From: Escherichia coli
GTDB lineage: Bacteria; Pseudomonadota; Gammaproteobacteria; Enterobacterales; Enterobacteriaceae
Length of the DNA stretch: 59,824 nt
Assembly: GCF_003334255.1 (NCBI RefSeq)
Contig: NZ_QOWU01000028.1
Direction: 5' to 3' (one strand)
Shown: positions 51,188 to 51,220 of the stretch, piece after piece
How positions within the stretch are numbered: position 1 is the first letter of the stretch
How the letters are laid out: each line of letters opens with the position of its first letter
Notes under the pieces: model-generated
What the model saw: only the letters and a program-made list of their open reading frames with translations
What the model was told of the DNA's origin: nothing
Databases searched by the model: none
Program-made: the position numbers and the translations under genes

Positions 51188-51220
51188 TTCCCCTCGCTCG
51201 CCCCTACCGGGTGAGGGGAA
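51188..51220. repeat. GC-rich hairpin element after nanA (related to the element at 33335..33371)
   Basis: TTCCCCTCGCTCGCCCCTACCGGGTGAGGGGAA: outer 8-bp stem TTCCCCTC/GAGGGGAA; shares the CCCCTCGC and GGTGAGGGG halves with the tldD-aaeR element. Confidence 0.55.

Follow-up and report, generated by a model that had tools for sequence, protein, structure and literature searches.

A two-arm, BoxC-like hairpin directly behind nanA in Escherichia and its possible role at the nanA-nanT junction

E. coli carries a family of repeats that goes by the names BoxC, PIT and TMECO (Bergler 1992; Hoyne and Maher 2000; Holder 2015, PMC4666352), and to our knowledge no function has ever been shown for BoxC. 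The REP elements between malE and malF reportedly stabilise RNA (Newbury 1987; Khemici and Carpousis 2004). Members of the BoxC family are three-arm repeats capable of forming an intrastrand triplex (PMC4666352). Full BoxC/PIT elements are reported to have neither terminator nor promoter activity, the presence or absence of true TMECO loci varies between strains, and palindromic TMECO pairs collapse into simple hairpins (Holder 2015, PMC4666352). For the REP/BIME repeats, PMC12306157 describes hairpins that are barriers to 3' exonucleases and so stabilise the RNA upstream of them, as well as Rho-linked attenuation. The same text relays the rule of Liang, Rudd and Deutscher (2015), by which a REP lowers translation when its distance from the stop codon is under 16 nt, and states that intergenic repeats often settle just past stop codons. 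A further point of comparison is the small RNA Spot 42, which in the gal operon pairs between galT and galK. Among its targets is nanT (Beisel and Storz 2011, as cited in PMC12612679). In this report, we compare these systems with a hairpin that lies between nanA and nanT in E. coli.

The DNA that we analysed (the window) is a 59,824-nt stretch of E. coli chromosome that starts inside an rrn operon, with 5S rRNA and tRNA. On it are nanR (49376-50167), nanA, nanT, nanE and nanK. The coding sequence of nanA (N-acetylneuraminate lyase; 50289-51182, plus strand) ends with the stop codon TGA at 51180-51182, according to both the list of open reading frames and the RefSeq annotation of an identical locus. 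That of nanT (sialic acid transporter; 51291-52781, plus strand) begins with the RefSeq ATG at 51291, which is in frame with the open reading frame, is preceded by the Shine-Dalgarno sequence GGGAG (51279-51283, plus strand; conserved in nearly all of 81 loci compared) and is conserved as a start across genera. The spacer between the two genes is thus 108 nt long (51183-51290). A preliminary description had put it at 78 bp, because an upstream in-frame GTG at 51261 was taken as the nanT start; this GTG sits within a conserved hairpin, hairpin 2, described below. The nanT Shine-Dalgarno sequence is predicted to be mostly paired (unpaired probability of about 0.07 in folds of the region), and a palindrome, ACUCA-CAA-UGAGU, spans the nanT start codon (51284-51296). 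Genomic SELEX has placed a peak of RpoN (sigma-54) holoenzyme in the spacer, and a promoter for nanTEK-yhcH has been proposed on that basis (PMC8743547). The spacer contains no convincing -24/-12 motif, and no properly spaced GG-N10-GC was seen by eye; a sigma-54 consensus scan with three mismatches was uninformative, as it gave 302 matches against 317 expected.

The structure of interest, hairpin 1, has at its core a 12-bp stem in which 51189-51200 pairs with 51208-51219 around the loop CCCCUAC (51201-51207). Two of the twelve pairs are G.U. As RNA, positions 51188-51220 fold at -21.9 kcal/mol (z = -4.8), a stability that none of 200 shuffled sequences reached. Additional A/U pairs lengthen the stem to 16-17 bp (51184-51224, plus strand) and bring the energy to -26.1 kcal/mol (z = -6.2). 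A partition function computed over 220 nt around the hairpin gives the 5' arm a pairing probability of about 1 and leaves the loop fully unpaired. The proposal in the preliminary description that a stable RNA structure separates nanA from nanT is therefore borne out by fold energy, shuffles and pairing probability alike. That description also placed the 33-mer 51188-51220 6 nt past the nanA stop. The 33-mer does start at the sixth nucleotide (a gap of 5 nt), but the stem itself begins only 1 nt after the TGA, with the GC core 7 nt after it.

The fold depends on the strand. The antisense RNA reaches only -17.6 kcal/mol (z = -2.3), which makes the sense RNA about 8.5 kcal/mol more stable; the antisense form is weaker because two of the stem pairs are G.U. 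For the related reason that two stem positions are G.T at the level of DNA, hairpin 1 is missing from the list returned by a DNA inverted-repeat finder. Hairpin 1 is a feature of the sense-strand RNA rather than a good DNA palindrome. The plus-strand 33-mer is unique in the window, even when three mismatches are allowed.

With its GC-rich stem, short loop and position at the end of a gene, hairpin 1 resembles an intrinsic terminator, and the preliminary description had suggested that it acts as a partial one. It differs from terminators in what follows the stem. No U-tract lies 3' of the stem on either strand: AAAUAAACGCAUC follows it, the sequence that a terminator would need to be U-rich is AAAUAAACGC, and the continuation reads AAAUAAAC on one strand and AAACAAC on the other. 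A terminator scan of 49000-56000 returned nothing at hairpin 1. Together with the reported inactivity of BoxC/PIT, these results speak against partial termination, and we rejected hairpin 1 as an intrinsic terminator on the missing U-tract and the silent scan. Among the Term-seq 3' ends listed for the nan operon in uninduced cells (PMC7815308 supplement), there is one inside nanA and none at the nanA-nanT junction. The one that is listed, at about 50334 and 45 nt into the nanA reading frame, is strong and not Rho-dependent. Since the operon was uninduced, the lack of a listed end at the junction counts as weak evidence.

The comparison with BoxC is closer. The preliminary description had called hairpin 1 the second copy of a GC-rich hairpin family, the first copy being at 33337-33372 (plus strand). 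That first copy, CCCTCGCCCCTTTGGGGTGAGGGTTAGGGTGAGGGG, is a canonical three-arm BoxC/PIT/TMECO element and corresponds letter for letter to TMECO no. 14 of MG1655 (Table 1 of PMC4666352). The arm sequences of hairpin 1 are indeed shared with it and with the other elements of Table 1: the right arm, GGGTGAGGGGAA, has exactly the sequence of BoxC arm 3 plus flank, and the left arm, CCCCTCGC, is the start of BoxC arm 1. Put in terms of the family, the G-arm GGGTGAGGGG(AA) is the third arm and the beginning of the C-arm is that of the first. Further, hairpin 1 is intergenic, it has the same G.T mismatch as the "mm" subtype, and it occupies the exact place at which full inverted BoxC pairs are found in other genera.

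Membership in the family does not follow. The family consensus is CCCTCNCCC-N3-6-GGGNGAGGG-N3-GGGNGAGGG, and a search of the window with this pattern gave 33337-33371 as the sole match. Hairpin 1 has one GGGNGAGGG block rather than two, and its C-arm reads CCCTCGCTC. Having two arms only, it could not form the intrastrand triplex, and the sequence of its inner stem and loop (CTCG...CCCCTACC) is foreign to BoxC. It is also absent from the list of 23 BoxC/PIT/TMECO elements of MG1655 (PMC4666352). The two differ in copy number as well. Across 5426 complete E. coli genomes, the median number of places found per genome is 18 with a full BoxC as query and one with hairpin 1; the family is multicopy (about 20 per genome) and variable between strains, whereas hairpin 1 is single-copy and fixed across them. 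What remains of the claim to a second copy is thus the shared arm sequence: hairpin 1 is BoxC-like, yet it is no BoxC by the family's defining feature.

To place hairpin 1 in a wider context, we compared 81 nanA loci and their downstream spacers from 80 species-representative Enterobacteriaceae genomes. The two-arm hairpin is present in all Escherichia sampled (E. coli, E. albertii, E. whittamii and further species). Full BoxC takes this place in Pseudocitrobacter faecalis (L007), P. vendiensis (L010) and Enterobacter sp. kpr-6 (L047), and a partial BoxC in Kluyvera. In P. faecalis and kpr-6, an inverted pair made of a type-A and a type-B BoxC follows nanA, which is the configuration of all palindromic TMECO pairs in MG1655 (Holder 2015, PMC4666352). 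The P. vendiensis spacer has grown to about 325 nt by tandem repeats of a BoxC-containing unit, and BoxC arms number 14 in it.

A MAFFT alignment of the spacers makes the repeat ancestry of hairpin 1 apparent. In it, the outermost arm of the left BoxC element (CCCCTCACCC) of P. faecalis and kpr-6 lies against the Escherichia left arm, and the outermost arm of their right element (GGGGTGAGGGG) against the right arm. The Escherichia hairpin and the inverted pair also have their flanks in common, TGAGTTTTT on the left and AAACGCATC on the right. The alignment suggests that hairpin 1 is most likely a two-arm BoxC remnant consisting of the outermost arms of an inverted pair from which the interior was deleted; alternatively, loss of the middle arm from a single BoxC may have given rise to it. 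A perfectly complementary CCCTCAC is still found in E. albertii and in a divergent E. coli lineage. In the common E. coli allele, an A-to-G and a C-to-T transition have produced the two G.U pairs.

Within the genus, hairpin 1 is highly conserved. It is found in 5409 of the 5426 complete E. coli genomes, and in 4420 it is identical over 44 nt. Ten Escherichia alleles were collected from 70 metagenomic contigs and from genome loci, and pairing of the 14-bp core is 100% in every one of them. Four stem positions vary, in each case by a transition in the C-rich 5' arm that leaves the bases paired (C-G to U.G, or A-U to G.U), and the G-rich 3' arm never varies. The loop is likewise invariant, apart from one extra C in E. 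albertii. Variation that is confined to the 5' arm and preserves pairing is the pattern expected of selection on the sense RNA, but we regard it as suggestive only: about half of the possible stem transitions would keep pairing by chance, giving p of about 0.06 for four events. A covariation test on the ten alleles was not significant, as 387 of 500 shuffles reached the observed score, and the sole change on both sides of the stem is in the weak A/U extension.

Beyond Escherichia, the junction is populated by a variety of hairpins. In 58 of the 81 loci, a hairpin of -14 kcal/mol or better starts within 20 nt of the nanA stop, and in most of the others one starts slightly farther away. These structures come from unrelated families: they are of BoxC type in Escherichia, Pseudocitrobacter, Kluyvera and kpr-6, are REP/BIME in Citrobacter, Salmonella, Enterobacter, Lelliottia, Yokenella and others, and are other GC-rich palindromes in Raoultella, Edwardsiella and Phytobacter. 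Three loci have no hairpin, namely two from Trabulsiella with spacers of 32-33 nt (L044 and L046) and one from Enterobacter (L029). Two strains of T. odontotermitis (L043 and L044) differ by the presence or absence of an insert of about 83 nt with REP-like hairpins; it lies exactly at the nanA stop codon TAA, and a TAA stands at both of its sides. A hairpin behind nanA is therefore common and replaceable and, given the three loci that have none and the difference between the T. odontotermitis strains, dispensable. Its recurrence could be explained by mild selection in favour of a stable stem of whatever kind, or by a preference of repeats for this site.

These substitutions bring hairpin 1 close to the REP/BIME stabilisers of the malE-malF kind. 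As in that case, a stable intercistronic stem-loop lies 3' of the gene whose product is needed in the larger amount, and REP/BIME elements take this very place in four of the genera just named (Citrobacter, Salmonella, Enterobacter and Lelliottia). The sequences themselves are unrelated. Hairpin 1 lacks the GCCGGATG...CCGGCCTAC motif, and no REP motif was found anywhere in 51183-51290, whereas the orthologous spacers of the other genera have one. A search of the whole window at the Rfam gathering thresholds found 5S rRNA, tRNA and four copies of naRNA4, and none of its hits lies in the nan spacer. The four naRNA4 copies (REP325; REP-related, Rfam RF02564) are arranged in tandem at 31395-31737. 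A stabilising role for hairpin 1, or for BoxC, would thus be an analogy with REP. In physical terms, hairpin 1 would qualify both as a barrier to exonucleases and, since its stem base and GC core lie well inside the 16-nt distance from the stop codon, for a stop-proximal effect on translation. We rank the barrier first on account of the toxicity of Neu5Ac and of the adjacent Spot 42 site.

This putative pairing site is a further element of the spacer. The sequence TCTGTACCCTAC (51230-51241, plus strand) is a perfect 12-nt Watson-Crick complement to nucleotides 1-12 of Spot 42. It begins 6 nt past the extended hairpin 1 and lies 50-61 nt upstream of the nanT start. In local folding, the extended duplex of Spot 42 with 51226-51242 has an energy of -23.7 kcal/mol; when the whole small RNA was folded with the spacer, the observed energy equalled the shuffle mean, and local windows were used instead. 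The 11-mer core of the complement is found nowhere else in the window, and the complement is invariant in all Escherichia alleles. The Spot 42 query itself has 100% identity in 5425 E. coli genomes, in one of which it is annotated as "spot 42 RNA". Partial complements occur in Atlantibacter, Siccibacter, Leclercia, Silvania and Enterobacter pulveris. We also considered whether hairpin 1 insulates the Spot 42 site structurally and rejected the idea, as in-silico removal or disruption of the hairpin leaves the unpaired probability of the site at about 0.52-0.58.

The arrangement recalls the gal operon, in that the pairing site for the small RNA lies within an operon, at the junction of an enzyme gene and the gene that follows it, and nanT is a listed Spot 42 target (PMC12612679). 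It differs in that the nan site, 50-61 nt from the start codon, does not lie on the ribosome-binding site, and in that it is flanked by two hairpins, the first of which may take part in regulation. The preliminary description had offered hairpin 1 as an explanation for a higher expression of nanA than of nanT. Repression of nanT by Spot 42 is an independent, documented route to that outcome, and the adjacent site is a better-documented explanation for differential expression than hairpin 1 is.

On the other side of the Spot 42 site lies hairpin 2, GCGUGUGGGC-AUC-GCCCACCGC (51257-51278, plus strand), which was found by folding and ends 1 nt ahead of the nanT Shine-Dalgarno sequence. Among 19 sequences from many genera, three of its six consensus pairs show compensatory changes; it is absent from the spacers of Citrobacter, Salmonella and Enterobacter. 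Hairpin 2 may be a 5' stabiliser or an element of translation. A third hairpin, GCCCGGU-loop-ACCGGGC followed by CUUUCG, occupies the nanT-nanE spacer (52789-52808) and may be a weak attenuator or a processing site; it recurs in Escherichia, Kluyvera, Pseudocitrobacter, Citrobacter, Salmonella and Raoultella. Farther downstream, four near-perfect palindromes have the core GCAGAC...GTCTGC. One lies just past yhcH (54869-54897), and three (55626-55664, 55669-55700 and 55710-55736) form a cluster in or at the edge of a minus-strand open reading frame (54911-56038).

Taken with the toxicity of its substrate, the position of hairpin 1 behind the lyase gene allows a functional proposal. We tentatively favour the reading that hairpin 1 is a BoxC relic, fixed in Escherichia, that acts in the manner of a REP stabiliser by capping nanA against 3' exonucleases. 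By this reading, a BoxC pair decayed at the position immediately past the nanA stop, and its remnant became fixed there in the genus. In the sense orientation alone, it folds into a very stable stem-loop of the nanATEK mRNA. Cleavage or termination of the message would then take place in the unstructured, C-rich stretch that follows the hairpin, the same stretch in which Spot 42 and Hfq would pair to repress nanT. From there, 3'-to-5' exonucleases could trim back as far as hairpin 1 and halt, and what remains would be a nanA-only RNA, capped by the hairpin and longer-lived than the nanT part. In the cytoplasm Neu5Ac is toxic, and NanA detoxifies it (PMC3658417), so a lyase in excess over the transporter makes sense. 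We infer the exonuclease barrier and its effect on the NanA:NanT ratio; both are plausible, and they would fit the recurrence of hairpins in most other genera.

A wider version of this proposal would treat the spacer as a post-transcriptional module of three parts, in which Spot 42 and Hfq trigger cleavage or termination, hairpin 1 caps nanA, and hairpin 2 protects or tunes nanTEK. The CCCUAC of the hairpin 1 loop might pre-dock Spot 42. Across the Enterobacteriaceae, selfish repeats of unrelated origin (BoxC, REP/BIME and others) would have been taken up at the junction to serve interchangeably in the role of hairpin 1, with the effect that the lyase is kept above the transporter and sialic-acid toxicity is avoided. 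We consider it unlikely that the module is correct in all of these parts.

Other readings of hairpin 1 have to be set beside the nanA cap. It may be leftover BoxC DNA with no measurable effect on the nan operon, harmless and tolerant of change, as most mutations in its C-rich arm are silent with respect to pairing. We judge this somewhat doubtful but to be taken seriously, for PIT/BoxC elements have shown neither promoter or terminator activity nor a phenotype in vivo (PMC4666352), the covariation is not significant, and some genera and strains do without a hairpin at this site. Moreover, as repeats often lie just past stop codons (PMC12306157), the recurrence of hairpins may reflect a preference of insertion and not selection. 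A relic of this sort is harder to reconcile with near-complete fixation in E. coli and presence in every Escherichia species sampled, given that true TMECO loci vary (PMC4666352), or with a 3' arm and loop that do not vary and changes that all keep the sense-RNA pairing. In addition, a stem of -26 kcal/mol in a transcribed operon is, physically, a likely block to exonucleases. Quite a different effect would follow if the terminating ribosome had to melt the stem, with stalling, cleavage, tmRNA tagging and less NanA as the result. This is the opposite direction to the earlier idea of nanA exceeding nanT. The distance of hairpin 1 from the stop codon falls under the 16-nt rule, and in most other genera, too, the hairpin begins no more than about 20 nt past the stop; that rule was established for REP and not for BoxC, and a brake on NanA seems counter-productive where an excess is needed to detoxify imported Neu5Ac (PMC3658417). 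By analogy with REP such an effect can be imagined, but we think it rather improbable.

The two remaining readings involve the sequence downstream of the stem and the loop. Hairpin 1 could pause the polymerase while the C-rich linker loads Rho, leading to partial termination before nanT. The linker (51221-51256) is rich in C and poor in G (10 C against 2 G), attenuation associated with BIMEs is cited in PMC12306157, and pairing of Spot 42 next to the hairpin might help to uncouple translation from transcription. At about 36 nt the linker is nonetheless short for the loading of Rho, the missing U-tract makes intrinsic termination unlikely, PIT/BoxC is reported to have no terminator activity (PMC4666352), and the Term-seq entries listed for uninduced cells include neither a 3' end at the junction nor a Rho-dependent entry for nan (PMC7815308). 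Attenuation of this kind is in our estimation improbable. Least probable of all, and a very long way from the nanA cap in our estimation, is the use of the loop as a kissing-loop docking site or a decoy for Spot 42. Its CCCUAC is complementary to nucleotides 1-6 of Spot 42, the same seed as in the main site 30 nt downstream, and the chance of a second copy of a given 6-mer in the 108-nt spacer is about 0.03. The loop is also unpaired throughout the ensemble, shows no variation among the ten alleles save the extra C of E. albertii, and is not derived from BoxC, whose loops are TTT or TTA (PMC4666352). Any such contact would be limited to 6 bp in a constrained loop of 7 nt, the match could be a coincidence, and the main site on its own already pairs at -23.7 kcal/mol.

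Whether hairpin 1 is functional or neutral, the terminator reading should be dropped, and the annotation of the nanA-nanT spacer should read 108 nt and include the Spot 42 site. If hairpin 1 is neutral, it is a well-preserved fossil of repeat turnover. If instead it caps a nanA-only RNA, it would show clearly that a decayed BoxC repeat has been put to use, and the junction would be an example of repeat families that substitute for one another at a single place in an operon. Such a cap would, together with the Spot 42 site, explain how the detoxifying lyase is kept ahead of the transporter when glucose is present.
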